From the NCBI GenBank assembly GCA_965198225.1, contig CBDAOY010000004.1, positions 1 through 64,000 of the forward strand: a stretch of 64,000 bases of DNA, given 5' to 3'. Numbering within the stretch: position 1 is the stretch's first letter; each line of letters opens with the position of its first letter. Below the pieces are notes generated by a model. That model was not told the origin of the DNA. It ran no database searches and saw only the letters and a program-made list of their open reading frames with translations. The DNA is from Terriglobia bacterium (lineage in GTDB: Bacteria; Acidobacteriota; Terriglobia; 20CM-2-55-15). A program made the position numbers and the translations under genes. This document shows positions 4,182-64,000 of the stretch, in pieces.

Positions 4182-4435
4182 AACTCCTCCCAATTTCCTC
4201 GAGATTGTCGCGTTGGTGTATCCGGGAATTCTCCTCTTTTGAGCTCTCGGCGGCCAGAATAATACGATCCCTTGTGCTTGGGTTGCATCCACATCCTTAA
4301 TCATCACTCTCCCGGGATGGGCTGATATGTTTCCAAGTGACTGATTGATTGCTTCCAACTCCTTCCTCCCGTACTATTTAGCCAAGTTCTGACACACATT
4401 GGCGACGGAACGCTTCGAGAGGCAGCTTGTAGCCC

Positions 4436-8518: not shown

Positions 8519-8545
8519 TTGACCGACCGGGTGCCGGTGCCGTGA
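8519..8545 (+). repeat. Remnant of a kinase-TolB gene 3' end (LTDRVPVP*)
   Basis: ttg acc gac cgg gtg ccg gtg ccg tga matches the family C-terminus (ERVPVN*, QLVPVP*). Confidence 0.55.
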
Positions 8546-25518: not shown

Positions 25519-26517
25519 TCAACGCTCCCCGTATTCAGTGAGGTGGTCGATTAAGAGGGATGTCATCGGGTCGGGGGCAAGATCCGGGATCCAGTGGCTC
25601 ACGCCCTCCAAGATCTCGAAGCGATACGGTGCTTCGACGTACTGTTCGGTGAGGAGTGCGCCGTCGATACACAAAAACGTGTCTTCGTCACTCCACGTAA
25701 ACATCGTTGGAACTCCCACGGAACCCAATGCCTGCGTCTGTGGGCTGCGGGCGCTGAAGGCCGCACGATACCAGTTGAGCGCAGCCCCAAGCGCCTCCTT
25801 CGAGCCCAGCACACGAACGTATTCGTCGATCGCCTCCGCGTCCAAACCCTCAAAAACGCTGCGAAGCTGCGCGTTGTCGTTGGCCAGAAAAGCGTCTTCG
25901 GAATCCGGCTGGACGAAAACGTCAAAATACGATGATGCCTCGACCTGGCACGAGCCCGGGTCGCTCAAGACCACCTGAAAGGCATCGGGATGCGGGACCG
26001 ACACCGGGTTTGCCGTGATCACACGATCTGCGGCGACGACGGCAACGGACCACGCAATCACCGCGCCCCAATCGTGACCCACGATGTGGAACCGGTCTGC
26101 ACCGATAGCATCTGCCAACCCAATGACATCCTGAACCAGGAGCGGCACTGCATAGTCTCCGATGTTTGCTGGGCGGGCACCGGCGGAGTAGCCGCGCTGG
26201 TTCGGGGCCACGGCCCGGAATCCAGCAGCACCCAGCGCGCTGAGCTGATGCCGCCACTCGTAGGAAGTCTGAGGAAATCCGTGGAGGAGAATCACGACCT
26301 CCCCGTCAGCAGGCCCCGCCGTGCGAACGTCGAATGTGAAACCACCGATCTCAACTTCAATGAGGTCGATCTCGCGGCTGGATTCAGCCGGGTTGCCCCT
26401 CGTACCGGTCTGTGACGCCATGTCGTCTGAGGGAGCGCACCCGCACGCAAGTGAAATGACGACGGCGATTGCCTGGAGAGCGGGTTTGGGCACCACCAGA
26501 TTGTCCCGAATGATCAC
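25519..26517 (-). CDS. Alpha/beta hydrolase (epoxide hydrolase-like), possible lipoprotein
   Basis: LLHGFP, NQRGYS, GHDWGA, NWYRA, SHW. Confidence 0.9.
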
Positions 26518-26741
26518 TTCGCCTCCTCGAATTGCGGATCTGTACGCGAGAACCCGACAAGTTTCGCTTCACGTTCAAATCGGGCGAGACCGTCGGCGTC
26601 CTCTGCAAACTCCGCAGATAGTGTCCGGAGGGCGACTTCACGCCCAAGCTTCATATCTCGGGCACGCAACACCTCTCCCATGCCGCCTCTTCCGAGCGGG
26701 GAGAGGATCTCGTGGCTGCCAAGTTGGGTGCCGGGGGGCAT
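26514..26741 (-). pseudogene. 5' stub of Ser/Thr kinase gene
   Basis: [45 protein letters not shown], then similarity is lost. Confidence 0.9.
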
Positions 26742-26979
26742 GTTCTAACGTGTGTCGAATCGATCCGCGAAAATCTCGGTAAAATACTACGGCAGGAAGG
26801 AGTGGGTAGCAATCAATCCGTCACATGCTTGAGTAACCGCCGATACGGGGCTTTCCGACAGAATCCACTTCGGAGCATAGGCGACTTGAACGAAGCCGCT
26901 GGCGCGGCGGACGCTACGCGTGTGCTGAGCGAAGAGTGATGAGCCCCCGATAGAGTGTGAGCCTCACAAGGAGGCTCAC

Positions 26980-27843
26980 ATGACGAAGCTGCGACAACGG
27001 AGCTGAACTATCTTCGATTCGGCGTATCTTCACGCGGTCGAAGACTTCGCCCGCTACTTCGGGAAGTCCCCCGACAAGCTCGAACAGGAACAGATGCGGC
27101 AGTACCAGCTGCATCTGCTTCAGGAGCGCAAGCTCGCTGTCGACACCATCATCGGACGGATCGCCGCACTCCGGTTCTTCTACGTGAAGGTGCTTCGCCG
27201 TCCCTATCACCAGGTCGATCTGGTCTATCCGAAACAGCCGTCCCGGTTGCCCACGATTCTGAGCGAAGAGGAAGTGGCGCAACTGCTGGCCTCCGCCAAC
27301 AGTGCCTATCACTTCGTCATCCTGATGACCTTGTATTCGACGGGACTGCGGCGGGCCGAGCTGTGTCGTCTGAAGGTCGAGGACGTCGATAGCGAACGCA
27401 TGGTGATCCATGTGAGGCAGGGTAAAGGCAATCGCGACCGCGACGTGCCGCTGTCACCGAAACTGCTGGAAGTCCTGCGCGACTACTGGCGTTGGCGGAA
27501 ACCCGGCGAGTACCTCTTCCCCAGTTTGCTCCGGACCCGGCCCGGACAGCCCATCGATGTGAAGACGGTTTGGTACGCCGTCCAACAAGCCGCCCAACGT
27601 GCCGGCATCAAAAAGAAAGTATCCCCACATACGCTGCGCCACAGCTGGGCCACCCACCTGCTGGAGAGGGGAACCGACCTGCGAACCATCCAGCTCCTGT
27701 TGGGTCATGTCGATCTGGAAGCGACGACCCTCTATCTCCATTTGTCTCAGGCGCACATGCAGCGCGTGGTGAACCCGATCGATTCTCTTCCGGTTCCCGA
27801 TCTGGGACCGTCTCCCCGTCTGAGAAAGAAGAAAGGCGAATGA
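26980..27843 (+). pseudogene. Tyrosine recombinase; 5' end disrupted, catalytic domain intact (open from ~27022, ATG at 27094)
   Basis: RBS + ATG at 26980 (MTKLRQR) hits TGA at 27004; downstream TGLRRAE, QGKG, HTLRHSWATHLLE, LLGH..TTLY. Confidence 0.85.
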
Positions 27844-29009
27844 GCCGGCCCGCCGTCGAGGTGGCCGACATCGTCCGCGCCCGGGTTCGAGGTTTCCTCC
27901 AGCGTCACCGCCTCGGCATCCAGAAGCTCAAGGTCCTGCGCGCCATCCTGAACTGTCGTACTGCGGCTCTGGGTGGCCACATCGACCGGTGTGCCGATTG
28001 TGGCCGGGAGTCCGGAATCTCGTTCAACTCCTGCCGCAACCGCCACTGCCCGAAGTGTCAGACCCAGGCCCGACGACGGTGGCTCGAAGCACGAGAAGCC
28101 GAACTGCTGCCCACCCCCTACTTCCACGTCGTGTTCACCGTCCCGCACCAGTTCCATCCGTTCTTCTTCCACAACCCTGCCCTACTCTACAGCCTGCTGT
28201 TTCGCAGCGTGGCCGACACGATGATCGAGGTGGCGGCCAATCCGAAACGACTCGGCGCCCGGATCGGCTTCTTCGGCATCCTGCATACCTGGAGTCAGAA
28301 CCTGGAGTTCCATCCCCACATCCACTGCGTGGTACCGGCCGGCGGACTGGCTCCGGATCAGTCCCGTTGGATTCCGGGTTCTGGGCGCTTCTTCCTCCCC
28401 AAGCAGGTGCTCGCCCGAGTCTTCCGTGGCAAGTTCATCGACGGGCTCGGGCGAGCGATCGCCGACGGTTCGCTCGAACTGTCCGGCTCGATTCGACCCT
28501 TCGGCGAACCGCAACACTTTCGGCGGTTCCGCCGCCAGATCCATTCCCGCAACTGGGTCGTCTATATCAAACGACCCTTTGGTGGCCCCGAACAGGTGCT
28601 CCGCTACCTGGGCCGCTACACCCATCGGGTCGCCATCTCCAACCATCGATTGATCTCGTTTGACGGTAACCGGGTCCGGTTCCGTTGGCGGGATTACCGC
28701 AATGGCAACAAGAGTCGCATCATGACACTCGCGGCCGACGAGTTCATCCGACGGTTCTTATTGCACGTTCTGCCGAAGGGCTTCGTCCGCATCCGACACT
28801 TCGGATTCATGGCCAACTACCGCCGGTCGGCCGCCTTCGCTCTCTGTCGCCAACTCCTCGATGCCATGCCGAGGGTCGAATCTGACGAAACCACCACCTC
28901 GAACTCTTCCTGGTCGTGTCCGCACTGTCAGGGACCGATGACTCTCATCCAACGCTTCACCGCTCTGCAACTCGTAGCGAGGCTCGCCTTCCAATGCGAT
29001 ACGTCCTAA
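27840..29009 (+). CDS. IS91-family transposase (Zn-binding + Y2)
   Basis: CRTAALGG, NSCRNRHCPKC, HVVFT, HTW..HPHIH (HUH), YLGRYTHRVAISN, RIRHFG. Confidence 0.93.
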   Translation: MSRPAVEVADIVRARVRGFLQRHRLGIQKLKVLRAILNCRTAALGGHIDRCADCGRESGISFNSCRNRHCPKCQTQARRRWLEAREAELLPTPYFHVVFTVPHQFHPFFFHNPALLYSLLFRSVADTMIEVAANPKRLGARIGFFGILHTWSQNLEFHPHIHCVVPAGGLAPDQSRWIPGSGRFFLPKQVLARVFRGKFIDGLGRAIADGSLELSGSIRPFGEPQHFRRFRRQIHSRNWVVYIKRPFGGPEQVLRYLGRYTHRVAISNHRLISFDGNRVRFRWRDYRNGNKSRIMTLAADEFIRRFLLHVLPKGFVRIRHFGFMANYRRSAAFALCRQLLDAMPRVESDETTTSNSSWSCPHCQGPMTLIQRFTALQLVARLAFQCDTS

Positions 29010-29349
29010 TCCTCCTTCACAAACCGACGACCGACGTGCGGTTCAGCCACGTCCTCGCCGGAGTGTGCCTCCGCTGCAAAATCCCCTCAGATCCCGTCCT
29101 TTCAACCCACCGATTCCCCGACCCAACTGCTTTCCGATTCACACCATCGACGCGGTCATCGACCGCCGGTCCCCCTCCTCGCCCCAACGCCACTCCAGAT
29201 CCGGCCCGCTTCCGGCTACTTTCTCCATAGCCCACCGCGTCCGCCGCATTCGGCCAGCGCCCTCCTTCAAGTCTTGTTATCGAAACTGCCGCGGTGGGAA
29301 CTTCTCGCTCATCCTGTGGCCGCGCTCGCCGCGGCACTTCCGATGAACG

Positions 29350-29467
29350 CTAACGACATTACAGAAAGGTGGATTGAAACAGCGTGGTGAATCGAGAGGT
29401 TCTGTGGGAGGCTCGAATCGCGAGGATTGGGGCAGGCACCCCTTCCTTCAGTTCTTCAAACCAGTTC
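29350..29467 (-). repeat. Right half of the kinase-junction repeat with 3' remnant NWFEELKEGVPA
   Basis: Aligns with 62312-62426. Confidence 0.8.
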
Positions 29468-29516: not shown

Positions 29517-30995
29517 ATGGAACAGGAAAGACATCATGGTCTCGACCGACGACGGGCCGGCGTCCTGCTCCACCCCACTTCGCTCCCTGGCTCTTTCGAT
29601 CATGGTGTACTCGGACCCGACGCTCATCGATTCGTCGACTTTCTCTGTTCAGCTGGATTCACGGTCTGGCAGACGCTGCCGCTCGGCCCCGTCGACGCTA
29701 CTCTTTTGCCCTACCGGGTGAAATCCTCCCGTGCCGGGAACCCCCGGTTGATAGCACTGGATCTGCCCGACGATGTCCCTTGGCGTCCTTCCGCCAGGGC
29801 GCTGGACGGTGCCAGGAACTGGGAACCCCGTCGAAAACTCATCCGTTGGACCTTCGATCAGTTCTGCCGACTGGCCCCGGAGGTGGAACGACGTCGGTTT
29901 GCATCGTTCATCAGGTCAGAGAGGGTATGGTTGCTACCGTTCGCGCTGTTTGAGGCCCTCAAAGAGCGGTTCGATGGTCGTGCCTGGTGGGGATGGCCCG
30001 AGCGTCTGCGGAACCGTGATCCCGAGGCCCTCCGGCGGGCCAGGATCGAGGAACGTGAAGCGATCCGTCGCGTCGCATTCGAGCAGTTTGTGTTCACGGT
30101 GCAGTGGCAGGCACTGAAGCGCTACGCCAACGACAGGGGCGTCTATCTGTTCGGCGACCTGCCAATCTACATCGGCCTGGACAGCGTTGACGTCTGGTGG
30201 CAGCGTGAGTTGTTCCTCATGGAGCCAAGCGGCAGACCGGCCCGGGTTGCCGGGGTACCCCCCGATTACTTCAGCGAGGATGGGCAACTCTGGGAAAACC
30301 CGGTCTATGACTGGGAACGCATGCGGTCGGATGGCTTTCGCTGGTGGATCGACCGAGTCCGCTCTGAGCTCCAGCGGTTCGATCTGCTTCGAATCGACCA
30401 CTTCCGCGCGCTGGAAGCTTATTGGGAAGTACCGGGTGGGGCGACAACGGCGAGAGACGGCCGATGGGCGCCGGGGCCCGGTGCCGATCTCCTAGAAGCG
30501 CTCAGCAAAGAGGTCGCCATGGACCGTCTTGTCGCGGAAGATCTGGGCACCATAACACCCGCTGTGCTCGCACTGCGGGACCGATTCGGCCTCCCCGGCG
30601 TTCTGGTGCTGCAGTTTGCGTTCGACGGCTCTCCAGACAATCCATTTCTTCCACAGAACCATCGCGCGCACGCAATCGTCTATCCGGGGACTCACGACAA
30701 TGACACGATCCTCGGCTGGTATACCTCCCTCGACGACAGGACCCGGGAGTTGGTGAATCAGCAACTGCAGTGTCGGGCCGATGAGATGCCGGGTGCCCTG
30801 ATTCGCGCTGTTCTGGGGTCACCGGCGAAGCTGGCCATCGTGCCGATGCAGGACGTTCTGGAACTCGGGTTTGGACACCGCATGAATACGCCTGGGACGA
30901 CGACAGGTAATTGGGCGTGGCGCTTCGGGTGGGAGGCGCTGACCTCGTCCCACGCGCGTGGGTACCGCGATCTGCTCGAACGCTTTGGGCGTTAG
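29517..30995 (+). CDS. malQ: 4-alpha-glucanotransferase (GH77)
   Basis: RRAGVLLHPTSLP, GDLPIY, AGVPPDYFSEDGQLW, RIDHFR, AEDLG, GTHDNDT, RMNTPG. Confidence 0.95.
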   Translation: MEQERHHGLDRRRAGVLLHPTSLPGSFDHGVLGPDAHRFVDFLCSAGFTVWQTLPLGPVDATLLPYRVKSSRAGNPRLIALDLPDDVPWRPSARALDGARNWEPRRKLIRWTFDQFCRLAPEVERRRFASFIRSERVWLLPFALFEALKERFDGRAWWGWPERLRNRDPEALRRARIEEREAIRRVAFEQFVFTVQWQALKRYANDRGVYLFGDLPIYIGLDSVDVWWQRELFLMEPSGRPARVAGVPPDYFSEDGQLWENPVYDWERMRSDGFRWWIDRVRSELQRFDLLRIDHFRALEAYWEVPGGATTARDGRWAPGPGADLLEALSKEVAMDRLVAEDLGTITPAVLALRDRFGLPGVLVLQFAFDGSPDNPFLPQNHRAHAIVYPGTHDNDTILGWYTSLDDRTRELVNQQLQCRADEMPGALIRAVLGSPAKLAIVPMQDVLELGFGHRMNTPGTTTGNWAWRFGWEALTSSHARGYRDLLERFGR

Positions 30996-31204
30996 CTGCC
31001 CTAAACACCACGGCGTTTTGGGGGAGGAATTTCTCAGCGACAGCCCCCCAGGCACAAATCCGGTTAGATGCGTTGGGTTTCATGTCGCTGTTTGGTTGCT
31101 TCCAACCGCCCTCTTCCATAAGATTCACCCAGTTTTTCCTTAGCGGCGCAACATCCCCTGTTTGCGATCCATGGAGAAACGATTTCGTTCGCCCGAGGTT
31201 GCCG

Positions 31205-31490
31205 ATGGAGCCCTCTTCGAATCAGATCACGAGATTGCTTCAGGCTTGGACCGGCGGCGATGAGAATGCACTGGGGGAGCTGACGCCCATCGTCTACCGC
31301 GAACTTCGAGCGATGGCCCGGCGATACATAGCCGGGGAGCGTCCCGGCCACACCTTGCAGGCTACGGCCCTGATCAACGAGGCCTACGTCCCGTTGATCG
31401 ACTGGAAGAATGTCCGCTGGCAGAACCGGGCCCACTTCTTCGCCGTCTGTGCCGGGATGATGCGGCGCATACTTGTGGATTCCGCACGAG
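31205..31490 (+). pseudogene. ECF sigma factor (TIGR02999-type) N-terminal half only
   Basis: ITRLLQAWTGGD..YRELRAMA..HTLQATALINEAY..NRAHFF..MRRILVDSAR, then unrelated sequence. Confidence 0.85.
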
Positions 31491-31988
31491 CACTTCGAGA
31501 GGGTATCCTTCTCCAAGAAGGATGCTGCGAGCAGTTGCGCGCGTCCTGCGATCGCCTCACGGCCCTTCAATCCCGAGACAATCGGCTAAGAGAGCTGCAT
31601 TATTCAAAAGAAAGAATGCGGCTGGAAGTCTTCCCTGAATATGCGGGCACTATAGGTTGGACCGAAAGACGGTGCAAGTTTTTTGTCGCTCCGGGGAGGG
31701 AGAACGAACAAGCAGATCAGAGGCTGTGCGAATTGGACGAACGCGAGTGCCCGCTACACCCCTTCGTCAAACACCGCCTCCCGCTTTTCTCCCGCCGCAA
31801 AGCTCAACCTTTCGTCACGTTCCACGTTTTCTGGACGGCGAAGAACCCGAGAACCAGTTGAAAATATTAACGTTTCATCACGAATCACGTGTTAGCGATC
31901 ATGACTCAAAATCTGGCGGGGATCACTCCCGTGGGGGTTCAAGCTGATAAGTAAAACAAGAGGGGTTCGGAGGGCAGGGGGTGGCGGG

Positions 31989-32094
31989 GCGGATAAGCGG
32001 AATAAGCAGGTCTGACGACTATGGCAGGGCTGAATTGTCGTCGTATGGGTGTTATGTACACCCGCGCGCGGCCGCAGGCCGTCGCGCGGATTCA
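31989..32094 (-). repeat. IS91/ISCR-like end (putative oriIS), copy 1
   Basis: gcggataagcggaataagcagg(g)tctgacg.ctatggcagggctgaattgtcgtcgtatgggtgttatgtacacccgcgcgcggccgcaggccgtcgcgcgg, near-identical to 34573-34683. Confidence 0.85.
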
Positions 32095-32257
32095 GGAGCC
32101 GGGCCTTGTTCGGACTGCGTTCGATCCCCAATGGATCGGCTACACCTCGGCTCTCGCGGCGCTACCTCGGTGAGCCGGCTCGCCGTCACGTCGTCGTTTG
32201 AACCGGCCCGCTCCCGCCTTGTTGCGAACCGAGCACTCGAAGGTGCACAATGCTGGC

Positions 32258-33223
32258 ATGGAGTCTGTGTTGCGCGAAGTGCTGCGGGATTCGAGAGCGC
32301 CCAGGCGTCTACCATTGCTCTTGCTTCCAGTGGTCTTGTTTTACGGCGTTCCGCTAATCCCCTACCCCTACGGGAACGCCATGCTGACGTCCCTGGGCGT
32401 GCGGCTCGCTTACCTCATCTTCGTCGCGCTCGTAGCCAGCCTTACCGGGTCCGTTTTGGGTTCGGTGCGGCGGGTGTACACGCGAAGGTTTGGAAACCAG
32501 GGGCGAGCGGGGATCCAATGGGGCATGCCGGCCGCGCAGATGGGGACGTTCGCCTTCGCGGCCTTGCTGATCGTCTCTGGTCTCCTCGATCGCAATCCCT
32601 ATTTACTCCTCATGCCGGGCCTTACCATCGTTGGCATCCTAGCCGTAGTGGCCGTATTCCTGTTCCGCGAAGAGGTCCGCTCCCTGTTCATCGGCGAAGA
32701 GAGCCAGGGTGCAGTGCCATCGGGCGACGGGCGGCTCAGAGAGACTCCCGGCGGCCCGCAGCAGCCGCGCATCGTGGTGAGCTACCGCAGGGAAGACACA
32801 GGGCACGTCGCCGGGAGGCTCCACGACCGACTCTCGAGCGAGTTCGGCTCCGAATTCGTATTCATGGACATCGACAACATCGAGCCCGGATCGGATTTCA
32901 AGGAGGCGATCGAGTCCGCGGTCGAGGCTGCCGACGTGCTGGTTGCCGTGATCGGCACTCGGTGGCTCAGCCTCACCGATCGAGAAGGGATGCGGCGGCT
33001 CGACGATCCGTCGGACTACGTGCGACTGGAGATCGGCACGGCCTTCGGCCGTGACATCCGGGTCATCCCCGTGCTCACCAATGACGCGGAGATGCCTGCC
33101 GAATCCGAGCTGCCCGACGACCTCCGACCCCTTTCTCGTCGACAAGCCATCGAGGTCGGGCACAAGAGCTTCCATTCCAACGTCGATGACCTGGTGCGTT
33201 CGGTCAGGAACGTCCGCTCCTGA
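32258..33223 (+). CDS. Membrane protein (about 4 TM) with C-terminal TIR_2 domain
   Basis: IVVSYRRED..AGRLHDRL..VFMDIDNIEPG..DYVRLEI..VIPVL. Confidence 0.88.
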   Translation: MESVLREVLRDSRAPRRLPLLLLPVVLFYGVPLIPYPYGNAMLTSLGVRLAYLIFVALVASLTGSVLGSVRRVYTRRFGNQGRAGIQWGMPAAQMGTFAFAALLIVSGLLDRNPYLLLMPGLTIVGILAVVAVFLFREEVRSLFIGEESQGAVPSGDGRLRETPGGPQQPRIVVSYRREDTGHVAGRLHDRLSSEFGSEFVFMDIDNIEPGSDFKEAIESAVEAADVLVAVIGTRWLSLTDREGMRRLDDPSDYVRLEIGTAFGRDIRVIPVLTNDAEMPAESELPDDLRPLSRRQAIEVGHKSFHSNVDDLVRSVRNVRS

Positions 33224-33434
33224 GACGTTGCGGGTCGCGGGGCGGGCCGCGGCTCCGGCGCGAGCAGAACGGATCGACTGCCACACGATTGGCGACTCGA
33301 CCCCCGTCATCCTCGACGCGATACTCCGTCGAGAGACCCCTGTCCGAGTTTTCCTATCGACTCTTGCGCGCCGACGAGGCGGAAGACCCGGTAGAGTTCA
33401 TCCACTCGATCTACGGGTCCGACTATCCCTCCGA

Positions 33435-33504
33435 GCGGATAAGCGGAATAAGCAGGGTCTGACGACTATGGCAGGGCTGAATTGTCGTCGTATGGGTGTT
33501 ATGT
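33435..33504 (-). repeat. IS91/ISCR-like end, copy 2 (shorter)
   Basis: Same left boundary gcggataagc, about 70 bp near-identical to the other copies. Confidence 0.85.
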
Positions 33505-33618
33505 CAACCCGGCGATCTGGAGTAACCGCAATCCTGCGTGGCTCGGCGCGCGCACCTCGCGCCGTGGTTCCAGACGAAGAAAGCCTCGTGATGGTTCGAG
33601 GTTACTATTGTGGCCGCG

Positions 33619-34530
33619 TCAGGGGTTTGTTGTTGCCGGCGGAGACGGCTGACTGCTACTGGTGTTCATCACGAACCCGGTGGCATTGGCGAGTTGTTCG
33701 AGGGTGAGCACATCGGTGATCCACTGGCCGTCAATGATCCACGTCGGGTAGGTTCTTATGCCAACCGCTGTACATGCGGCAGCCGCGCGAGCGTTTCGGC
33801 CATTGGGACTGCATTCGATGTATGGAAGCCGGCTCGCTGAAGGTCCGAAAAACCTCTTCTGATCCTGGCAGTGTGGGCACCACGACGCTCCATAGAACTT
33901 TACGCCCTTCTCAGTGAGGTGTTCCGCGAGGGCCCGGGCCATCGGGTCCTCCGGTCCGAGAGGCTCCGGCAATGGGGCAGTGTAGTTGAGATGAAGCGCC
34001 ACGATGAAAAGAGCCGCGAGCACCCCCCGGCCACGAACGAGACGCCCCCATGGGCGGTTCACCACCTCCGTCGGCCGCTGGTAAATGACCAGGGCCAGCG
34101 TGGCCGCCATCAGCGTGAGCGACGTCAGGCAATACGGACAGGTCGCCTTGAGGATAAGTAGGGAAACGGCGGTCAAATAAACGCTGTAGCAGAAACCGAA
34201 GAATGCCGCTGAAAACGCGTAGGACCAGTGCTGGTCGACCCGGCGGACAAAGGCGATTCCTCCGATTCCGGTGTATGCCAGCAATCCCCAGAACGCTGTC
34301 GGCAGGCCGAACAGGATTGCCCACCGACTTGTCAATACGACGTCGCATCCGCCGCCTGCGGCACATCCTCTAACCGCCGCACCCGTGAACGAGGTCCATG
34401 CCAGGTAGCTGGTCAATACCATCCCAATTCCGCTCAGCACCAGCAATGGCCAGTTGGGCGTCGTACGCAAGGCAGGCCCGGTCACTGGGCGCGCGTTTGC
34501 CTGCCGCCATCTTTTCGATTTTTTCCCCAT
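33619..34530 (-). CDS. VKOR-thioredoxin-like fusion (disulfide bond formation)
   Basis: C..GGGCDVVLTSRWA, TCPYC, FYGASWCPHCQDQK, YIECS..C..YPTW. Confidence 0.92.
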   Translation of the reverse strand: MGKKSKRWRQANARPVTGPALRTTPNWPLLVLSGIGMVLTSYLAWTSFTGAAVRGCAAGGGCDVVLTSRWAILFGLPTAFWGLLAYTGIGGIAFVRRVDQHWSYAFSAAFFGFCYSVYLTAVSLLILKATCPYCLTSLTLMAATLALVIYQRPTEVVNRPWGRLVRGRGVLAALFIVALHLNYTAPLPEPLGPEDPMARALAEHLTEKGVKFYGASWCPHCQDQKRFFGPSASRLPYIECSPNGRNARAAAACTAVGIRTYPTWIIDGQWITDVLTLEQLANATGFVMNTSSSQPSPPATTNP

Positions 34531-34572
34531 AAACGGAATGATAACTGAAAAAGCAGTTTCAGTGACGTTGAT

Positions 34573-35250
34573 GCGGATAAGCGGAATAAGCAGGGTCTGA
34601 CGCCTATGGCAGGGCTGAATTGTCGTCGTATGGGTGTTATGTACACCCGCGCGCGGCCGCAGGCCGTCGCGCGGGGGATTCAAGGCAGGATGTTCCGGGC
34701 AGGCGGCTGATTCAGGGCAGTTTTTCGTCTTGCGGAGACACACCCATCCCGCGGCGTCGTGACGTCGACGTTCAGAAGTCGTCCATCTGGCAGTTGTAGT
34801 CGGAAGAGGCCGGCGCCACAGGCGGGGCGCGGGAAGGCAGGCCCAGGCACTCCAGGATTCTTACTGTGATCGTGGGCGGACGAATTGCTGCAAGGATTTT
34901 CATCCTTCCGCCGCAATGTTCACACTGAAGAACGTCCACCAGGAAGGCACGTTTCATCAACTCCGCCCAGGTGTAAGATTGCGCGCAGATGATTCCGTGC
35001 AGGGCTCAGCCGCAACAGTCAGCTCGGCTGATTGTTGGGCATTAGGCTGCGGTTTCACCTCGGTCTCCCTGCGATTGTCATGGCTGGCTGGAACGATCAG
35101 GGACCTCCACGCCGCAGCAGGGCCAGGTACTCCGTGATACCTCGTCAGGTGAGCGCGCGGCGCCGGGACCAGGGCCGCCAGTTTCGCGATGAAGTCCTGG
35201 CGCTCGAAAACCACAGCGGTGGTTCCGTCACGCCATGGACGTTTCAAACG
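34573..35250 (-). mobile_element. Truncated IS91/ISCR-type element: end copy 3 plus frameshifted 3' part of the transposase
   Basis: KRPWRDGTTAVVF..FIAKLAALVPAPRAHLTRYHGV and WAELMKRAF.VDVLQCEHCGGRMKILAAI..ILECLGLP; repeat lies downstream of the tnp stop at 34772. Confidence 0.85.
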
Positions 35251-57476: not shown

Positions 57477-58571
57477 ATGCTGGACCCACTCCGTTTGAAC
57501 CGCTTGTTCTCAGCACTGATGAGCAGTTTTCTGCTCTCCATAGCCATCGGTCTCGCCATGTCGGCGACTCCGGTCATCGCTCGCGCTCAGGAAGATCTGC
57601 CGCGGATCGTGGTCCTGGCGACGGGCGGTACGATCGCCAGCACGTACGACGACACGATCGGTGCGCTGCGCGTCGCCTTAACAGGCGACGAGATCGTCAA
57701 CGCGGTCCCGGGCCTGGACGAGATCGCTCGGATCACTGTCGAACAGGTTGCGAACGTGAACAGTCGGAACATGACCCCCGCCATCTGGCTCCGACTCTCC
57801 AGGAGGGCGAACGAGCTCCTCGCTATGCCTGATGTCGCCGGCGTCGTGGTAACGCACGGCACGGACACGCTCGAGGAGACGGCATATTTTTTGGATCTCA
57901 CGGTGACGAGCGACAAGCCGGTCGTCGTGGTCGGCGCGCAGCGAGCTCCCGCCAACTACGACTCCGACGGACCGCGAAACATGCTGAACGCGGTCCGCGT
58001 CGCTGCGTCTCCAGAAGCGGTCGGTATGGGCACGATGGTCGTGATGAACGGACAAATTAACGCAGCACGGGAGGTCACCAAGACCAACACACTCGACGTT
58101 GAGACCTTCCAAACGCTCGACTTTGGTCTTCTCGGCGTCGCGGATGTCGAGAAAGTCCGCTTCTACAGGGCGCCGTTCCGTCGCCAAACCATCGCGCTCG
58201 ATACAGAAGTCGAGCTGCCGAACGTCGTGATCTTCAGTGAATATGCAGGATCCGATGGCCGGTCCATTGAGCTGCTTCTCGAAGACGGGAACCTTGACGG
58301 AGTTGTCATCGCGGGCCTTGGCCTCGCGCACGTGAGCGATCGGACACTGGAAGCCCTGCGCGCGGTGCGCGAACGCGGAATTCCGGTCGTGGTCAGTTCG
58401 CGGGTACTGACCGGACGGATCGTCCCGCTATACGCCAACAACGTCGAACTGTTGAACATCGGCGCCGTACAAGCGGACAACCTGAGTCCCCAGAAAGCCC
58501 GGGTACTGCTCATGGTTGCGATGACGAAGTCCACCGATACAGAGGAGCTCCGACGTTACTTCAGCCGCTGA
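57477..58571 (+). CDS. Secreted L-asparaginase (type II-like)
   Basis: LATGGTIA, VTHGTDTLEETAYFL, GAQR..SDGPRN, VTKTNT, LSPQKARVLL. Confidence 0.93.
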   Translation: MLDPLRLNRLFSALMSSFLLSIAIGLAMSATPVIARAQEDLPRIVVLATGGTIASTYDDTIGALRVALTGDEIVNAVPGLDEIARITVEQVANVNSRNMTPAIWLRLSRRANELLAMPDVAGVVVTHGTDTLEETAYFLDLTVTSDKPVVVVGAQRAPANYDSDGPRNMLNAVRVAASPEAVGMGTMVVMNGQINAAREVTKTNTLDVETFQTLDFGLLGVADVEKVRFYRAPFRRQTIALDTEVELPNVVIFSEYAGSDGRSIELLLEDGNLDGVVIAGLGLAHVSDRTLEALRAVRERGIPVVVSSRVLTGRIVPLYANNVELLNIGAVQADNLSPQKARVLLMVAMTKSTDTEELRRYFSR

Positions 58572-58639
58572 AGTCAGCAGCCTGTGGCAAAACCCTGAAG
58601 GGTCGCTGACCGCTTTTCGTCTCTGGGAGTCTTCCGCGA

Positions 58640-59710
58640 TCACTCGCGGGGATTGCGGCGCGCGAAGTCGTCGGCAATCTCATCAAAGGTCACGAAGCGC
58701 ACCCCCACCTTGGCCTTCATGTACGCAATGAGCCGTTCGAGCATCAGCAGAACCTGAGGTCGTCCGGAGACATCTGGATGTATCGTCATGGTGAAGACCG
58801 CGTACTGGTTCTCGCGGTACACCCAGTCGAACTGGTCCTTCCACATCTGCTCGAGGTCGCGAGGGTTCACGAAGCCGTGGCTGTTGGGCGCAGCCTTGAT
58901 GAACATCATCGGGGGAAGATCGTCGAGGTACCAGTTGGCTGGAATCTCAATGAGATCGGTCTCGACACCGCGTACCAGGGGTTTCATCCACTCCGAAGCA
59001 GGCTTGCTGTAGTCGATCTTCGTCCATGTGTCTTCCCGACGGACGTAGTAGGGGTGGAAATCGTCGTGCATCAGACTGTGGTCGTATTTGATGCCTCGCT
59101 CAAGTAGCAACTCGGGTGTAAACGAGCTGAACTCCCACCATGGCGCGACGTACCCCGTTGGTTTCCTGCCCGTCAGCTCCGTGATCAGTTCGATGCTCTT
59201 GTCCAGAACCGCCGCTTCCTGTTCGCGCGTCATCGAGATCGGGTTCTCGTGGCTATAGCCATGGATGCCGACCTCGTGCCCCGCCTCGGCAACCGCCTTC
59301 ATCTGATTCGGAAATGTCTCAATCGAGTGCCCTGGAATAAACCAGGTCGTCTTGATGTCCGTGTCTTTGAACAATTTGAGCAGGCGGGGGGATCCGACTT
59401 CCCCCGCGAACATGCCTCGCGAAATGTCATCCGGTGAGTCCTGTCCCCCGTAGGAGCCAATCCATCCGGCTACGGCGTCGACATCCACGCCGAATGCGAC
59501 GAGGATTTCCTTGTCCGTGTCCTGTGCGCCGAGGTTCCTGGTGAATCCCGCGATCGCCAGAATCGTGATTGCCAGTGTCGTTGCAGCCAACTTTGCGACC
59601 CCGAACAGGCTCGGTAGCCGGCTCGGGGCAGTCCGAATCGCCAGGTCGTTGGCGCGTGTGGGGCCACTCGTCATGTCGTTCTCCATGTTTGTGGGTTTGT
59701 CCTGCGTCAC
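58640..59710 (-). CDS. Polysaccharide deacetylase (HP0310/PuuE-like) with N-terminal signal-like extension
   Basis: [45 protein letters not shown]. Confidence 0.92.
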
Positions 59711-59909
59711 ATGATCGCAGACGCAGCAGCGGGTTCGCTACAGAGACATAGTGGCGGCTCCCGTAGGGCGTCCATCTGGACTGCCGCGAACGACCGGGTG
59801 ACGATGCAAGAGCAGCGACTTGTGTCGACCGGTCTGAACCAGCCAGTCACGCTCATCGGATCCTGGATGCCGGCCTCAAGTTCAAGCCCCTGCCAAGCGT
59901 TCGGATCGT

Positions 59910-60164
59910 TCATGATCTCCTGGCCAAACGACCCGCTTGCCGAATGGTGGCTATATTCGGGTGGTTCAACGGGGCGAGTAGTTTGGCTTCACGTTCAAAC
60001 CGGGCGAGACGTTCTCGATCCTTGGCGAACTCTTCGGGCAAGGTCTTGATCGCCATTTCGCGTCCGAGCCTGGAGTCCCACGTGAGCCACACCTTGCCCA
60101 TCTCGCCCTTTCCGAGGGCTGAAACGACTTCGTGGTGCGCGAGTTTCGAACCGGGCTGGATCAC
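59910..60164 (-). pseudogene. 5' stub of Ser/Thr kinase gene
   Basis: [65 protein letters not shown]. Confidence 0.9.
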
Positions 60165-60436
60165 GCCTGAATAAGACTACAGGAAGGAGTTGGGGTCAAT
60201 CAGAAGGTCACATCCCTGATAAACCGCCTAGCCTGACATCTGAATTGAACCTGAATTCATAGGGTTTCGTGAAAATCCAACTTACCGCGATGGCGACCAT
60301 CCGGACAAGTGGAATTGCTGCACTACTGTTCAGACGATATTCAAGACGGTTACTGAGGATAGGAATGCGGAGTCAGCGATGAGAAGAGAACGAAGACGCT
60401 ACGGGACCGGCACCCCCGTTCCTTCAGTTCTTCAAA
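60148..60436 (-). repeat. Kinase-junction repeat copy B (spacer + FEELKER..VPVP* remnant)
   Basis: Core cgcctagcctgacatctgaattga..attcat.gggttt..gtgaaaatccaacttaccgcgatggcgac shared with 62244-62316. Confidence 0.88.
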
Positions 60437-60527
60437 TCATTTCCGGACGGTGTCGACTCCCGGGGCAGTGGGATTGCGGCAAATCATTTCCGGACGGTGT
60501 CGACTCCCGGGGCAGTGGGATTGCGGC
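60434..60527 (+). repeat. Perfect 47-bp tandem duplication
   Basis: aaatcatttccggacggtgtcgactcccggggcagtgggattgcggc x2. Confidence 0.95.
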
Positions 60528-60737
60528 ATCAATTCAACGTTGCTCTCAGTTCTTCGACCCAATTCTCGATAACGATCAACGATTGAGTTGATCGAAGCTG
60601 GCCCGCAAAAGCCGACGATACATGGACGGTCGGCAGCTCGAGCGTACGTGCTCGTCGAGCTCATCCTCGCGCACTGGACGGCGACCGAACATAGACGGCC
60701 CCCACATCCAGAGTGGAGGGGAGACCGAGGATCGTTT

Positions 60738-61877
60738 TCAGTTCTTCGGTGTCAGTTTGAGCATGCGCCCGCTTCTGTCGTCTGCGTCGTCCTCCAGAAC
60801 CCAGATGGCGCCTTCCGGCCCCTCGACAACGCTCCGAATTCGCGCACCCATGTCGTAGCGCTCGACCTCGCGGGCATGGTCGCCGTCGAGCTCGATGCGC
60901 ATGATCGCCTGGGACGAGAGGCCTGCGACGAACGCATCATCGCGCCAGTCGGAGAACAGATCGCCGCGATAAATCATCAAGTCACCGGGCGAGATGACGG
61001 GTGACCACCACACTCCCGGTTCTTCGAATTCCGGATGCGTGTCGTGGTCGGGTATCTCACGCCCGTCGTAATGGTTGCCGTTGGAGACGGTCGGATAGCC
61101 GTAATTCGCTGCACGCAGGATCCGGTTCAGCTCGTCACCGCCCCGCGGCCCCATTTCGATATCCCAGAGCTGACCGTCGAGACCGAATGCCAGCCCAAGC
61201 ACATTGCGGTGGCCCAGCGACCACACCTGCCCATAGACCCCTTCATCGTCGACCAGCGGATCCTCGTCGAAGTAGTTGACGAAAGGATTGTTGTCCGGAA
61301 CCGAACCGTCGTCGTGCAAGCGCAGGATCTTGCCCAAGTTCGCTTGCATGTCCTGGGCCGGCGTGAATTTCTGGCGGTCGCCAGACGAGATCCACAGATA
61401 ACCATCGTCGTCAAACAACAGCCTGTGCCCGTAGTGGCCGTAACCGACGACCTTGGGATACTGGCGCCAGATGACTTCGAAGTCGGATAGTCTTCCGCCG
61501 CGTCTGGTCTCGTTCAGCACCGCGCGGGCGACTGCTGCGCCCCGTGCATCGCCCACACCGGACTCGGCGTAGCTCAGGTAAATCATGTGGTTCTCGGCAA
61601 AATTCGGGTGCACAGCGACATCACCCAGACCGCCCTGACCGCCGTAAGCGACGTCCGGCATGCCGCGGATGCCCCGAGACTTCTCACCGTCCTGGGTGAC
61701 GATGAACAAGTTGCCCTTCTTTTCCGTCACCAACATGCGCCCGTCCGGCAGGAAGGCCAGGGCCCAGGGGTCGTCGAATGAGGTAATGGACTCGACCTCG
61801 AATGGCAGTTCCATTTGTGCTCGTGCCCCAGCCGCCATGAACATGCTCAACCCAATTACTAAGATTCGTCTAGCCAT
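60738..61877 (-). CDS. PQQ-dependent sugar dehydrogenase (YliI/Asd-like)
   Basis: PWALAFLPDG, GQGGLGDV, GKILRL.DDG.VP.NNPF, SLGHRN, EMGPRGGDELN..NYGYP. Confidence 0.93.
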   Translation of the reverse strand: MARRILVIGLSMFMAAGARAQMELPFEVESITSFDDPWALAFLPDGRMLVTEKKGNLFIVTQDGEKSRGIRGMPDVAYGGQGGLGDVAVHPNFAENHMIYLSYAESGVGDARGAAVARAVLNETRRGGRLSDFEVIWRQYPKVVGYGHYGHRLLFDDDGYLWISSGDRQKFTPAQDMQANLGKILRLHDDGSVPDNNPFVNYFDEDPLVDDEGVYGQVWSLGHRNVLGLAFGLDGQLWDIEMGPRGGDELNRILRAANYGYPTVSNGNHYDGREIPDHDTHPEFEEPGVWWSPVISPGDLMIYRGDLFSDWRDDAFVAGLSSQAIMRIELDGDHAREVERYDMGARIRSVVEGPEGAIWVLEDDADDRSGRMLKLTPKN

Positions 61878-62149
61878 TTATTAGCCTCGTTTGTTACGCG
61901 TTTTGTCGATCGATATGTCGTTTAGATAGAGTTCATCACAGCTACGCAACGCCGGTGCTGTATTCGTTCAGTGTGTGCAAGTGGTGATGATGGCCGTTTA
62001 CTGACCGCTCAGGCCCTCGTTCCACGCCTTCTCTATCACTGGCCGAACGACTTTCGCAGATTCGAGCGACCCGTTTATGCTCAGGCCGGATGGAAGTGCA
62101 GCAAGTCGTTTCGGTAAAGCTCGACCCGAGGATTGCCTGCGGAATCGAA

Positions 62150-62430
62150 CTGTAGTGTGCAAGCTTGGAACCGGGCTGAATCACCCGTAAATAAAACTAC
62201 AGACTGGAGTTGAACGCAATCAATCAGTCACATGGCTGTAGTACGCCTAGCCTGACATCTGAATTGACCCGCATTCATGGGGTTTTGGTGAAAATCCAAC
62301 TTACCGCGATGGCGACTTTACAGTCAAGTGGATCGAAACAGAGTGGCGTATCGACAGGCTGTTGGAACCTCGAACAGCCGGATTCATGGTACCGGCACCA
62401 ATTGCTTCAGTTCTTCAAACCAGTTCAGGA
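62150..62430 (-). repeat. Kinase-junction repeat copy A (gene end + spacer + about 12-codon kinase stub IQPGSKLAHY)
   Basis: Aligns with 60148-60436, with 26780-26888 + 29350-29467, and partly (inverted) with 4337-4381. Confidence 0.88.
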
Positions 62431-64000
62431 CGACGTTGACTTGGGGCGGTGCAGATTCCGTGGTTTCGGTTTGGTCCGCAGGTATGACGACCACGAATCG
62501 TTCCCCGTCGGGCATGATGTCATAGCCTCGGAAGGTGCCGAATACCCCCTCAGCAGGAAGCGCCTGTTCATTTGTGAATGTGAAGCCACGGTCGGTTGCG
62601 ATGTCCACGCTAAAGAGTGTCGCACCTGTGTTGCCCCCAAACGTAAAGGCGCGGCGGTAGAACATTTCCGTTCCGTCACGGGACCACATAGGGAACGCTG
62701 ATGCCACTCGCGTGACCTGAATCCTCGGAAGGCCCGCTTGTGACAACGACTTAACGTAAATCTGATTGGCACCTGATTCCTGAGAAGAGTAGGCCAGCCA
62801 TTCCCCGTCCGGTGAAAACACAGGATCAGATTGGATAGACCCCGGTACGTCATAGAATAGCTCCGGCGTAGACCCCGTCTCCGAGGACACCGTCCATATG
62901 CTCCTACCTCGAACTTGCCCACTACTCGTAAAGGCAAGAGTTTGCCCATTCGGTGACCAGGAACTGGGCCAGACTCCGCTTACGTCCTCCACCGTTAGAA
63001 GTTTCTCGGCGGCTCCGCTCAAGTCTGCGGGTTGTGAGTAAATACCCAGCGTTCCTCCGATGTCTGAAGAGAAAGTGACACGTTCACTATCGGGCGTCCA
63101 GACAGGTCGCTGGTTGCTACCGTCCTGCGTCAACCGCTGGATCTGCGTGTCGCCCGCCAGGTCGTAGACCCATATTTGGTTTGTTCCGTCGTCTTCCTGC
63201 GTCTGGACCGCAAGCCGCGAGCCATCCGGCGAGATACGCGGACTGAAATACTGGGCGGGCGGTACGCTGAGGGGTTCCACGTCGCCGTTACGGTGTGCCA
63301 ATCCGAGAATGCGGCTGACGGCAGGGGTGTCATCAGCCGTGAACACCAGGATGCCGTCTTCTGAAATATCAAAGTTCGCGGCTCCCGTCCTCTTCGCCGC
63401 CACGCTCTGCTGAGCGGGCATTGGATCTGAAGTGACCTCGAGACTCTCTGCATCGAAACCGACTGCCCACAGATCATTGCCGATCACGTAGACGACGTGC
63501 CCGCTGTTGGCATAGCGTGGATTACTGCCGACGGGTGCGACCTCAGACTCAACTCCCGACGCGAAGTCGAGCACGCGTATCTCGGAGGTCTCACCGGAGC
63601 CTTGCCTCGCAGTGAAAAGAACTCCCCGACCATTCGGCAGAAACTCGGGCCACCAGTGGGTCATGCTCCCCTCTGGTTCCGTGAGTGGTCTTGGTTCACC
63701 CCCGGCCTCAGACACTTGCATTAGCCCACCGCCGCCCGTGGCGTATACGATCGTTCCATCCGGACCCCAGCTCGCACCGCGCAGAACTCCACCAAGATCA
63801 ACGATCGTTGACGAAGGCCCGCCCTGGATGGACACCCAGCGAAGCGTATTGTCGCTGTTGACGCCGAACCCCACGCGTGATCCGTCGGGTGAAAAGAACG
63901 GATTCGTTGTCTCTCTCAGATCGAGAAGTTGAGAACTATTGAGCAGGTCCAGACGCCGCATGTACAAGAGGCGACTCCCGTCGTCGTCGTTCAACGTGTA
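62384..64000 (-). CDS. C-terminal TolB-like propeller of a kinase-TolB protein (5' part outside the window)
   Basis: PFFSPDG, WGPDG, WSPNG repeats; ends VNVVLNWFEELKQLVPVP*. Confidence 0.88.
   Translation of the reverse strand, partial: YTLNDDDGSRLLYMRRLDLLNSSQLLDLRETTNPFFSPDGSRVGFGVNSDNTLRWVSIQGGPSSTIVDLGGVLRGASWGPDGTIVYATGGGGLMQVSEAGGEPRPLTEPEGSMTHWWPEFLPNGRGVLFTARQGSGETSEIRVLDFASGVESEVAPVGSNPRYANSGHVVYVIGNDLWAVGFDAESLEVTSDPMPAQQSVAAKRTGAANFDISEDGILVFTADDTPAVSRILGLAHRNGDVEPLSVPPAQYFSPRISPDGSRLAVQTQEDDGTNQIWVYDLAGDTQIQRLTQDGSNQRPVWTPDSERVTFSSDIGGTLGIYSQPADLSGAAEKLLTVEDVSGVWPSSWSPNGQTLAFTSSGQVRGRSIWTVSSETGSTPELFYDVPGSIQSDPVFSPDGEWLAYSSQESGANQIYVKSLSQAGLPRIQVTRVASAFPMWSRDGTEMFYRRAFTFGGNTGATLFSVDIATDRGFTFTNEQALPAEGVFGTFRGYDIMPDGERFVVVIPADQTETTESAPPQVNVVLNWFEELKQLVPVP

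Follow-up and report, generated by a model that had tools for sequence, protein, structure and literature searches.

The locus at 58640-62430 raises the question of whether the ends of a kinase gene family can capture unrelated genes. The window analysed here, a stretch of 64,000 nucleotides on contig C4, belongs to a Terriglobia-labelled acidobacterium (G000), and two sister genomes, G002 and G003, were available for comparison. The initial annotation had described, along the minus strand, a kinase-TolB 3' end, a spacer, a kinase 5' stub, a PQQ dehydrogenase, kinase 3' remnants, the same spacer, a second stub and a polysaccharide deacetylase, and all of these were found in that order; it had overlooked a 147-nt SGNH-hydrolase 3' remnant between the 11-codon stub and the dehydrogenase (GSDH). 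The features are as follows.

62384..64000, minus: Ser/Thr-kinase–TolB gene, 3' two thirds (family HMM positions 248-890, E 1e-159; PD40 repeats)
62185-62383: spacer A, 199 nt, between the kinase-TolB 3' end and the 11-codon stub
62295..62332, no strand: palindrome of spacer A, intact, 38-bp imperfect, TCCAACTT..GCGAC..AAGTGGA (distal-element model E 2e-23; matches the IS insertion site)
62186..62246, minus: proximal conserved upstream block of spacer A (alignment of 33 copies; ends 1 nt before the GTG start)
62152..62184, minus: 11-codon kinase 5' stub, MIQPGSKLAHY (start identical in intact paralogues)
62004..62150, minus: SGNH/GDSL-type hydrolase 3' remnant, fused to the 11-codon stub (84-85% identity to the G002/G003 gene)
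60738..61877, minus: cargo 1, soluble glucose/sorbosone (PQQ-type) dehydrogenase, GSDH (PF07995, E 3.7e-122; own Shine-Dalgarno)
60529..60579, minus: 3' remnant A of a kinase family gene, LIVIENWVEELRATLN-stop (33-nt match, 85%, to an intact 3' end)
60433..60526, no strand: perfect 47-nt tandem duplication between 3' remnants A and B
60399..60436, minus: 3' remnant B, FEELKER(V)PVP-stop, 1-nt insertion (50 nt at 86% to an intact 3' end)
60165-60398: spacer B (89-nt stretch 82% identical to spacer A)
60276..60313, no strand: palindromic IS-target site of spacer B, intact (distal-element model E 2.5e-20)
60166..60227, minus: proximal conserved upstream block of spacer B
59940..60164, minus: 74-codon kinase 5' stub (family HMM positions 2-74, E 3.8e-38; Pkinase E 7.7e-9)
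58640..59710, minus: cargo 2, polysaccharide deacetylase (PF01522)
58576..58636, minus: residual trace of a further kinase 5' stub, downstream of cargo 2 (alignment with G002, G003)

Stubs and remnants were assigned to the kinase–TolB family by homology to its N-terminal kinase domain or its C-terminal end. The HMM match of the 74-codon stub covers 59940-60158, and the ORF continues without homology to 59910; remnant B, after which spacer B comes next, reads open only with a 1-nt frameshift. Spacers A and B were recovered by nhmmer at E 2e-49 and 2e-48, and a search of 58000-64000 against Rfam (E up to 1) gave no match, thus the spacer represents no known RNA family. The kinase-TolB gene ending at 62384 extends to about 64363, outside the window, where it is cut by a truncated IS copy (C4:64330-66555); its 5' part is lost there, and a deletion has joined IS nt 312 to kinase codon ~248.

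In so repetitive a family, such an arrangement might stem from chimeric joins of paralogous kinase copies in a metagenome-derived genome, and a 47-nt tandem duplication, collapsed to one copy in the short-read contigs of X1, X3 and X5, is indeed a difference from the window, the only one in those contigs. However, independent contigs from the runs of three studies, which span the junctions of stub, spacer and cargo, agree with the window without a single difference across 58887-60199 and 60268-60873, and G002, whose genome is one contig, has this architecture too, so that an artefact is most improbable. The assembly is sound, the 11-codon stub junction lying outside the cleanly covered stretches. 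Differing junctions, for which the initial annotation had suggested a check of mapped reads, did not appear in sequencing data: the contigs from the three studies carry the same junctions, and those of four runs hold no reliable alternative joint, 60873-62408 being without clean cover. Two candidate joints, 60443/62406 and 62200/60190, were rejected, their sides being shorter than 30 nt and probably derived from paralogues.

The arrangement is not confined to a few places. Forty-five Ser/Thr-kinase–TolB HMM chains cover the family model end to end in G000, and a genome-wide nhmmer search with the spacer returned 33 matches, 29 of which include the proximal block. These 29 blocks are followed by full-length genes (11), partial genes (2), a stub with a same-strand ORF (10) or no family sequence (6); in the ten block-plus-stub cases, stubs of 9-88 codons precede a same-strand enzyme gene. 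The stub and cargo pattern is seen again on contigs C6, C7 and C9, and together with the 33 spacer matches this is more than chance would give. G000 holds at least 18 short 5' stubs (14 of 24-108 codons by HMM and four shorter ones read by eye), at least eight short 3' remnants and many mid-gene truncations of the family, and at least seven cargos stand in a frame, preceded by a 5' stub and followed by a 3' remnant. Of the recurrences proposed within the window, that at 26514-29467 does contain a block, a stub and a 3' remnant, but is interrupted by a 2.5-kb IS (26881-29357); that at 4337-4381 (nhmmer E 0.003) corresponds to the block upstream of a kinase gene, 4445-7075; and that at 8519-8545 is weak, a 15-nt match reading DRVPVP-stop with E 0.03 in a tiny search.

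On balance, the locus is probably a decaying, rearranging part of a hugely amplified Ser/Thr-kinase–TolB family. A family unit consists of the upstream block reaching to the GTG start, a gene or tight head-to-tail run of genes, the DNA-conserved last 45-50 nt and the palindrome. Many units would have lost their bodies through illegitimate deletions and rearrangements, and neighbouring or horizontally acquired enzyme genes with their own ribosome-binding sites would end up between the leftover ends, on the strand of the block; an IS at the palindrome would add breakage and some local duplication of flanking DNA. Two parts can still be made out in them, at one end the upstream block together with the first 9-88 codons, and at the other the last 11-26 codons.

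Comparison with the sister genomes points to such erosion. The SGNH remnant at 62004..62150 corresponds to the final 147 nt of a gene, 245 aa in length, which is intact in both G002 and G003 and of which G000 holds no other trace; the stub–SGNH fusion is a deletion scar. The kinase fragment downstream of the deacetylase measures ~190 nt in G002, ~60 nt in G000 and ~0 in G003, and since no kinase gene matches the G002 piece at more than 85% identity, this piece is old. Between the conserved block and a small ORF, which reads as dodecin-like, G002 carries an 84-nt insert and G000 none; by eye, unscored, the insert reads as a kinase catalytic-loop fragment. Two orthologous places with kinase remnants of different length indicate erosion by progressive deletion. 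Truncated, frameshifted and IS-interrupted copies, differing remnant sizes at orthologous places and a deletion scar are all as expected of pseudogene erosion in a paralogue cluster, whereas the strong bias of the G000 remnants to the extreme 5' and 3' ends and the ten upstream blocks that now precede same-strand enzyme genes are unlike it.

That bias can be quantified. Among the 5'-anchored truncated copies, 18 of 22 are shorter than 110 codons, against about 13% expected under a uniform model, a count that leaves out 11 kinase-domain hits which stand alone and end between HMM positions 283 and 334. Short stubs are thus far commoner than single random deletions would give, which runs against decay; their predominance may reflect selection against longer truncated kinases, or repeated erosion. 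Pure decay would also need two well-placed deletions for each of the framed cargos, and a further point against it is that the cargo lies on the strand of the stub in 10 of 10 cases.

The initial annotation had proposed to check whether orthologous junctions carry different cargo in relatives. Kinase remnants of different size were found at such places, and three units bear on the point as well. G000 and G003 have orthologous FGE-sulfatase genes, 92% identical, yet the upstream block and stub before them are not orthologous, and homology begins at the same breakpoint in both; of an M19 dipeptidase, the same two genomes share only the gene, the 24 nt preceding it and the 5 nt following it, the context being unrelated; and an amidohydrolase unit is 97.5% identical between genomes with core genes at 88-93%. 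At the amidohydrolase locus, a 745-nt segment of G000 is replaced by other DNA in G002 and G003. The FGE, dipeptidase and amidohydrolase cases, together with the stub-length bias, the framing and the strand bias, suggest that units are exchanged and not only eroded. The arrays of G002 and G003 are almost wholly different, although their common regions are 96-98% identical; for kinase array L015 of G003, no syntenic counterpart exists in G002.

One way to exchange units, once such an arrangement exists, would be homologous recombination, in the same or a related strain, through the ~270 nt conserved at the 5' end and the 45-50 nt conserved at the 3' end, copying a stub, its cargo and a 3' remnant into other family genes in place of their bodies. 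DNA conservation among paralogues is limited to just these two ends (72-87% over up to ~290 nt at the 5' end, 85-97% over the last 32-50 nt), and stub lengths are confined to the conserved 5' region (up to 108 codons). The 3' remnants share with intact 3' ends the same 85-97% over 32-50 nt, which encode the C-terminal NWFEELK..VPVP end; paralogues being similar over the last 45-70 nt only, the start of a remnant cannot be fixed at the DNA level. The close likeness of the amidohydrolase unit between species and the near-complete difference between the G002 and G003 arrays would fit such copying. On the other hand, genome and piece searches found no cargo twice in different kinase frames of G000, the FGE orthologues differ upstream well past the stub, at an illegitimate junction, and the first unit would still require an illegitimate event. 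A stretch of 45-50 nt at ~90% identity is also marginal for RecA-type exchange. We think this route improbable.

The claim that the kinase ends serve as anchors or landing pads fares no better at the junctions themselves. Stubs pass into cargo at codons 9, 10, 11, 24, 26, ~30, 41, 62, 74 and 88, 21 stub-to-cargo and cargo-to-remnant pieces, compared all against all, have no motif in common, and one stub is fused to a fragment of a different gene. A repeated site does exist, but outside the gene ends: the distal part of the spacer is a 38-bp imperfect palindrome lying ~50-90 nt downstream of the kinase stop codon, and it is into this palindrome that a 2.5-kb IS specifically inserts. The IS encodes a tyrosine integrase (PF00589) and an IS91-type transposase (PF04986, E 1.7e-62; PF14319, E 1.6e-30) with both the Y2 HUH and the N-terminal zinc-binding parts. 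Its 10 copies in G000 are 97-99% identical; all 10 right and all 8 left junctions fall inside the palindrome element, at its centre (core GCGAC), with CGAC at both junctions, and about 12 clear elements are unoccupied. IS91 itself inserts at a GAAC/CAAG tetranucleotide without target duplication; here CTTGAAC belongs to the left end of the IS, so that the junctions cannot decide on this rule. One copy occupies the site of the third junction unit in the window:

29428..29467, minus: 3' remnant of a kinase family gene, upstream of the IS-occupied site
26881..29357, plus: IS copy, tyrosine integrase (5' end damaged) and IS91-type Y2 transposase (PF00589, PF14319, PF04986)
26556..26842, minus: third unit, upstream block 26783-26842 and 62-codon stub 26741-26556
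25519-26517: alpha/beta hydrolase gene, its GTG start overlapping the stop codon of the 62-codon stub

Such an element invites the reading of a genuine cassette platform, akin to ISCRs or integrons, in which the palindrome would be a recombination site and the IS would move whole site-to-site segments, either by its tyrosine integrase or by read-through of its rolling-circle transposase. The segments would be kinase units, or units with an enzyme-replaced body; arrays would be built in this way, and the kinase family itself may have been amplified. The invariable insertion at the palindrome centre and the combination of PF00589 with PF14319 and PF04986 accord with this, as does the IS left end, which occurs in three copies (97% identity) together with ~435-486 nt of its left flank; the flank contains a 3' remnant, and the copied segment ends near the next site. 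The 745-nt segment at the amidohydrolase locus is bordered by sites, starting 6 nt before the core of one and ending exactly at the core of the next; with the flank copies, it represents some movement linked to the site. The small ORF unit is present elsewhere in G002. Copies related to the IS number at least 44 in G002, with only two remnants in G003, yet stubs occur in both. A tyrosine integrase that moves an ISCR-related unit is reported in PMC9376610.

Against this, a search with 20 IS flanks, at an identity threshold of 92%, yielded only one flank family; the remaining flanks are by eye only ~70-80% alike, thus they are not carried along with the IS. The G002 copy of the small ORF unit lacks a distal site upstream, most other unit borders between genomes are not at the palindrome, and the contigs of four runs show no variant junctions. 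Moreover, cargo lies inside the units and not between the sites, so that insertion at the site leaves the stub-to-cargo junctions unexplained. A search for an empty-site pair in G003 gave no clean case: the IS flanks of G002 locus L034 map to distant places of G003, and for L030 no syntenic G003 counterpart was found. We hold the cassette platform to be rather unlikely, and are equally doubtful that a hybrid element spread the kinase genes to ~45 copies and now shuffles units with a foreign enzyme behind a retained promoter, without attC.

What survives of the proposed integron-like capture is a recurring architecture, diverse cargo, a foreign-looking GSDH and a repeated site with a tyrosine recombinase; capture at the kinase ends does not. 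As in integrons, there is a tyrosine recombinase, successive units are separated by an imperfect palindrome, and the small enzyme genes of the array are diverse and all point the same way. Unlike in integrons, the recombinase is located inside a multi-copy IS and not beside the array (the only one found is that of the 10-copy IS, and no integrase gene flanks 58-64 kb), each unit has its own upstream block in place of a single common Pc promoter, unit borders are mostly off the palindrome, and cargo lies within the remnants of resident genes. With ISCR/IS91 elements and complex class 1 integrons it shares the Y2 HUH transposase, one flank duplicated with the IS end, and partial duplicates of a conserved segment flanking unrelated genes, but the G000 IS additionally encodes a tyrosine integrase, its insertion point is the centre of a single 38-bp palindrome, and the cargo of the kinase units consists of ordinary metabolic enzymes, no resistance genes being seen. 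IS1111/IS110-type elements target REP or attC sites by means of a DEDD transposase. The G000 IS resembles such palindrome-targeting elements in its strictly site-specific insertion into a repeated intergenic palindrome (10 occupied sites against ~12 clear empty ones), but differs in pairing a tyrosine recombinase with a Y2 HUH enzyme and in a target private to the spacers of one gene family. Titles and abstracts in the literature mentioned neither the kinase-TolB family or its stubs nor any IS91 element that has an integrase and targets a palindrome.

If decay is the right account, as we hold most likely, the locus has descriptive value for the turnover of a very large signalling-gene family in an acidobacterium, and conserved upstream blocks may come to drive enzyme genes that are unrelated to the family and in part foreign. 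The cassette reading, if true, would mean that Acidobacteriota have a new chromosomal system of gene capture that is not an integron, and also a mechanism for paralogue amplification. The IS with its strict palindromic target is well suited to the question of which of its two enzymes determines the target.

As for expression, the proximal part of the spacer is the normal upstream region of intact kinase family genes elsewhere in G000. From its conservation and position, the block is probably a promoter/operator, and the cargo may be transcribed from it; a scan of 59600-62500 found no sigma-70 consensus site, which lends a promoter role no support, and no intrinsic terminator.

The cargo genes are diverse accessory enzymes of differing origin. 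GSDH looks foreign, being at most 43% identical to proteins in 30 relatives versus 75-95% to proteins of other lineages, and was probably acquired horizontally. The polysaccharide deacetylase is 88% identical at the nucleotide level to its counterparts in G002 and G003 and has an asparaginase adjacent; both genes are core and syntenic in the sister genomes. A 262-aa 'cargo' at C6:642106, met in the search for border motifs, is itself a repeated mobile element. Translational coupling of stub and cargo was considered and rejected as a general feature: among six cases computed, a clear overlap (GTGA) occurs in the alpha/beta hydrolase only, the DUF1028 cargo being separated from its stub by 2 nt and two C6 cases being unreliable, with start coordinates that are off. 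Five of the six cargos have a Shine-Dalgarno-like sequence of their own.

Re-reading of the 58-64 kb region in the genome under study (G000, 6.4 Mb in 9 contigs, the window being the first 64 kb of contig C4) upheld the order of stub, spacer, cargo and remnant that the initial annotation had described at 58640-62430. Stubs are short 5' pieces and 3' remnants the last codons of amplified Ser/Thr-kinase–TolB genes (the family), while cargo is a non-kinase enzyme gene after a stub.

Features of the 58-64 kb region, in minus-strand order
end at 62384, minus: kinase-TolB gene, family HMM positions 248-890, with PD40 repeats
between 62384 and the 11-codon stub: first spacer, 199 nt
62184-62152, minus: 11-codon stub, MIQPGSKLAHY
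62150-62004, minus: 147-nt fragment, tail of an SGNH-hydrolase gene
61877-60738, minus: glucose/sorbosone dehydrogenase (GSDH, PF07995)
60579-60529 and 60436-60399, minus: two family-gene 3' remnants
60433-60526: perfect 47-nt tandem duplication, between the two 3' remnants
after the 3' remnants, before the 74-codon stub: second spacer
60164-59940, minus: 74-codon kinase stub
59710-58640, minus: polysaccharide deacetylase

The two window spacers have an 89-nt stretch in common at 82% identity, and with both as query nhmmer found 33 spacer copies in G000. Their proximal part of ~60 nt (the block) is strongly conserved, ends 0-2 nt before a GTG start in one subfamily, and by eye contains a TTGAC-like hexamer followed after 17 nt by T(A/C)(G/T)TAT. 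Since a consensus scan called no promoter in the spacer region and the spacer matched no Rfam family, the block is regarded as a putative promoter only. Among the 29 spacer copies that include the block, 11 are followed by a full-length family gene (in two pieces in 5 of these), 2 by a partial family gene, 10 by a stub and cargo, defined as a same-strand non-family ORF of >=120 aa within 700 nt after the stub, and 6 by no family sequence. One window block (4333-4381) lies upstream of a full-length plus-strand family gene at 4445-7075, whose two pieces (HMM positions 2-220 and 224-890) suggest a frameshift or stop near 5101-5111.

Cargos after stubs comprise GSDH, polysaccharide deacetylase, alpha/beta hydrolase, FGE-sulfatase-like, DUF1028, amidohydrolase, M19 dipeptidase and methyltransferase genes and two unnamed ORFs, most of them with their own Shine-Dalgarno sequence. 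At least 7 cargos or cargo groups have a 5' stub before and a 3' remnant after them, namely GSDH, M19, ThuA, a 262-aa mobile-element ORF, the methyltransferase group, FGE with a 176-aa ORF and, in the sister genomes G002 and G003, the amidohydrolase. This framing, together with the 10 of 29 blocks leading to stub and cargo, indicates that the stub–cargo–remnant pattern noted initially is real and common.

A family profile built from 24 uninterrupted full-length ORFs and searched against the six-frame translation of G000 gave 45 end-to-end model chains, 42 of them covering >=860 of 890 positions, and 14 5' stubs of 24-108 codons; four further stubs (9, 10, 11 and ~30 codons) were read by eye, and short 3' remnants number at least 8. 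These counts exclude many matches to PD40 alone and 11 matches ending at HMM positions 283-334, which were judged to be stand-alone kinases outside the family. In tight arrays, e.g. C6:278-295 kb, family genes abut without spacer, so that spacers are confined to the start and end of a run. Truncation also occurs mid-gene, with 5' fragments ending at HMM positions 267, 448, 558 and 607, and some copies have no 5' end. Very short stubs are in excess, as 18 of 22 5'-anchored truncated copies are shorter than 110 codons (9-88 codons before cargo), and cargo is strictly co-oriented with its stub. Simple decay predicts less order than is seen in the short stubs, the framing by both kinase ends and the co-orientation.

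The unit said to recur at 26514-29467 does recur, but it is broken by a 2.5-kb element at 26881-29357 (the IS) encoding a tyrosine integrase (PF00589) and an IS91-type transposase (PF14319, PF04986), of which G000 holds 10 copies at 97-99% identity. The IS targets the palindromic element TCCAC(A/T)T – 12 nt – GCGAC – 12 nt – A(A/T)GTGGA, CGAC being present at each end of the IS; in G000 all 10 right and all 8 left junctions fall within it, the right-flank arm being clear in 8 of 10 and degenerate in 2. The palindrome is intact in both window spacers (62295-62332 and 60276-60313), and 12 clear unoccupied copies were found genome-wide. An 85%-identical IS variant lies beside the same palindrome in G002 and another Terriglobia-labelled MAG (right flanks clear in 5 of 11, partial in 2 of 11). 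The kinase ends show no sign of the recombination-anchor role initially suggested for them, the repeated site being located in the spacer and serving the IS; no motif common to 21 junction pieces was found. Anchor-mediated replacement of kinase bodies could explain the short-stub excess, the two-end framing and the co-orientation, and is judged quite improbable.

G002 yielded at least 44 matches to this integrase-plus-IS91 type of IS (10 at 84-89% to the G000 element and ~34 at 67-73%). G002 and G003 are 96-98% identical in common regions, and the many IS in the former versus only 2 remnants in the latter point to a very recent burst in one lineage. In an Acidobacteriaceae-labelled MAG (locus L049 1177-2085), a gene for a protein distantly related to the IS transposase (54% aa identity) likewise adjoins a Ser/Thr kinase gene, a possible hint that IS of this type were tied to kinase genes before the genus arose. 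ECF sigma factors of PF07638 type are linked with Ser/Thr kinases, and a plus-strand window ORF (30911-31861) adjoining IS-B repeats matches only the first half (positions 2-93 of 185) of that model and is possibly a truncated ECF sigma gene.

Several comparisons give signs that units move. GSDH was probably acquired: among 30 relatives, 17 in the same family, identity is <=43%, whereas many proteins elsewhere, including some labelled Vicinamibacteria or Woeseiaceae, match it at 75-95%, some of these homologues at 92-95%. G000 and G003 share the M19 gene by itself (89% nucleotide identity), in an unrelated setting, and G002 lacks it. FGE orthologues reach 92% identity, yet the block and stub upstream are non-orthologous, with one common breakpoint. 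Between G000 and G003, identity reaches 97.5% over the amidohydrolase unit, which comprises block, 9-codon stub, gene and 76 nt. Downstream of it, G000 has a 745-nt segment running from site to site and stopping precisely at the next palindrome's core, where G002 and G003 have a 3' remnant instead. The IS left end with ~435-486 nt of flank occurs in three copies at 97% identity, and the kinase arrays of G002 and G003 differ almost wholly despite their 96-98% identity in common regions. Cassette movement linked to the site could likewise account for short stubs, framing and co-orientation, although we consider it doubtful.

What follows the 11-codon stub is the 3'-terminal 147 nt of an SGNH-hydrolase gene. 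G002 and G003 have this gene complete (84-85% identical) and G000 shows no other trace of it, therefore a deletion joined kinase codon 11 to this tail. Just outside the window, another deletion joined IS nt 312 to kinase codon ~248. The deacetylase and an asparaginase gene are syntenic with G002 and G003 at 88-93% identity, and the kinase 5' fragment between them measures ~190 nt in G002, where it is old (<=85% identical to any kinase gene), ~60 nt in G000 and almost none in G003. Decay is also favoured by the 9-88-codon spread of stub lengths, by the lack of a motif common to the junction pieces, by the cargos' own Shine-Dalgarno sequences and by an insert in G002 described below. Since the kinase ends bear no recombination-site signs, the repeated site serves the IS and the best-documented events are deletions, we lean towards a hypervariable family island undergoing decay and rearrangement, in which short stubs, framing and co-orientation could reflect selection that keeps a promoter and disfavours long truncated kinases. 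In G002, the unit of block and small ORF carries an 84-nt insert (L063 ~1600-1684; G002:C1 ~1897705-1897790), absent in G000, which read by eye and unscored appears to be a kinase catalytic-loop fragment (IYRDLKSANVK...), the ORF after it seeming dodecin-like by eye; this remnant is internal, not terminal, and mid-gene remnants thus exist but are hard to detect.

Contigs from runs of three studies have the 58887-60199 and 60268-60873 junctions unchanged, which speaks against an assembly artefact and, for those samples, against ongoing shuffling. Three runs (X1, X3, X5) show the 47-nt unit duplicated at 60433-60526 only once in their short-read contigs, through either assembler collapse or real length polymorphism.

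A second repeated mobile element of ~1.1-1.4 kb, whose 262-aa ORF has no Pfam match, has repeats in the window at 32009-32089, 33456-33536 and 34594-34674 (span 32009-34674) and copies at C6:641985-642927, C7:217896-217995 and C6:545673-547108. Kinase stubs directly border its ends at C6:641973 (codon 26) and C7:217896 (codon 69), and a further stub, at C6:547440, is ~330 nt or less away. The element may use kinase genes as insertion sites and bring about deletions. A G003 kinase-TolB gene contains a 336-nt insertion (L015 8393-8728; G003:C1:3244392-3244727), apparently a small non-autonomous mobile element, which matches G002 465614-465949 at 99% identity.
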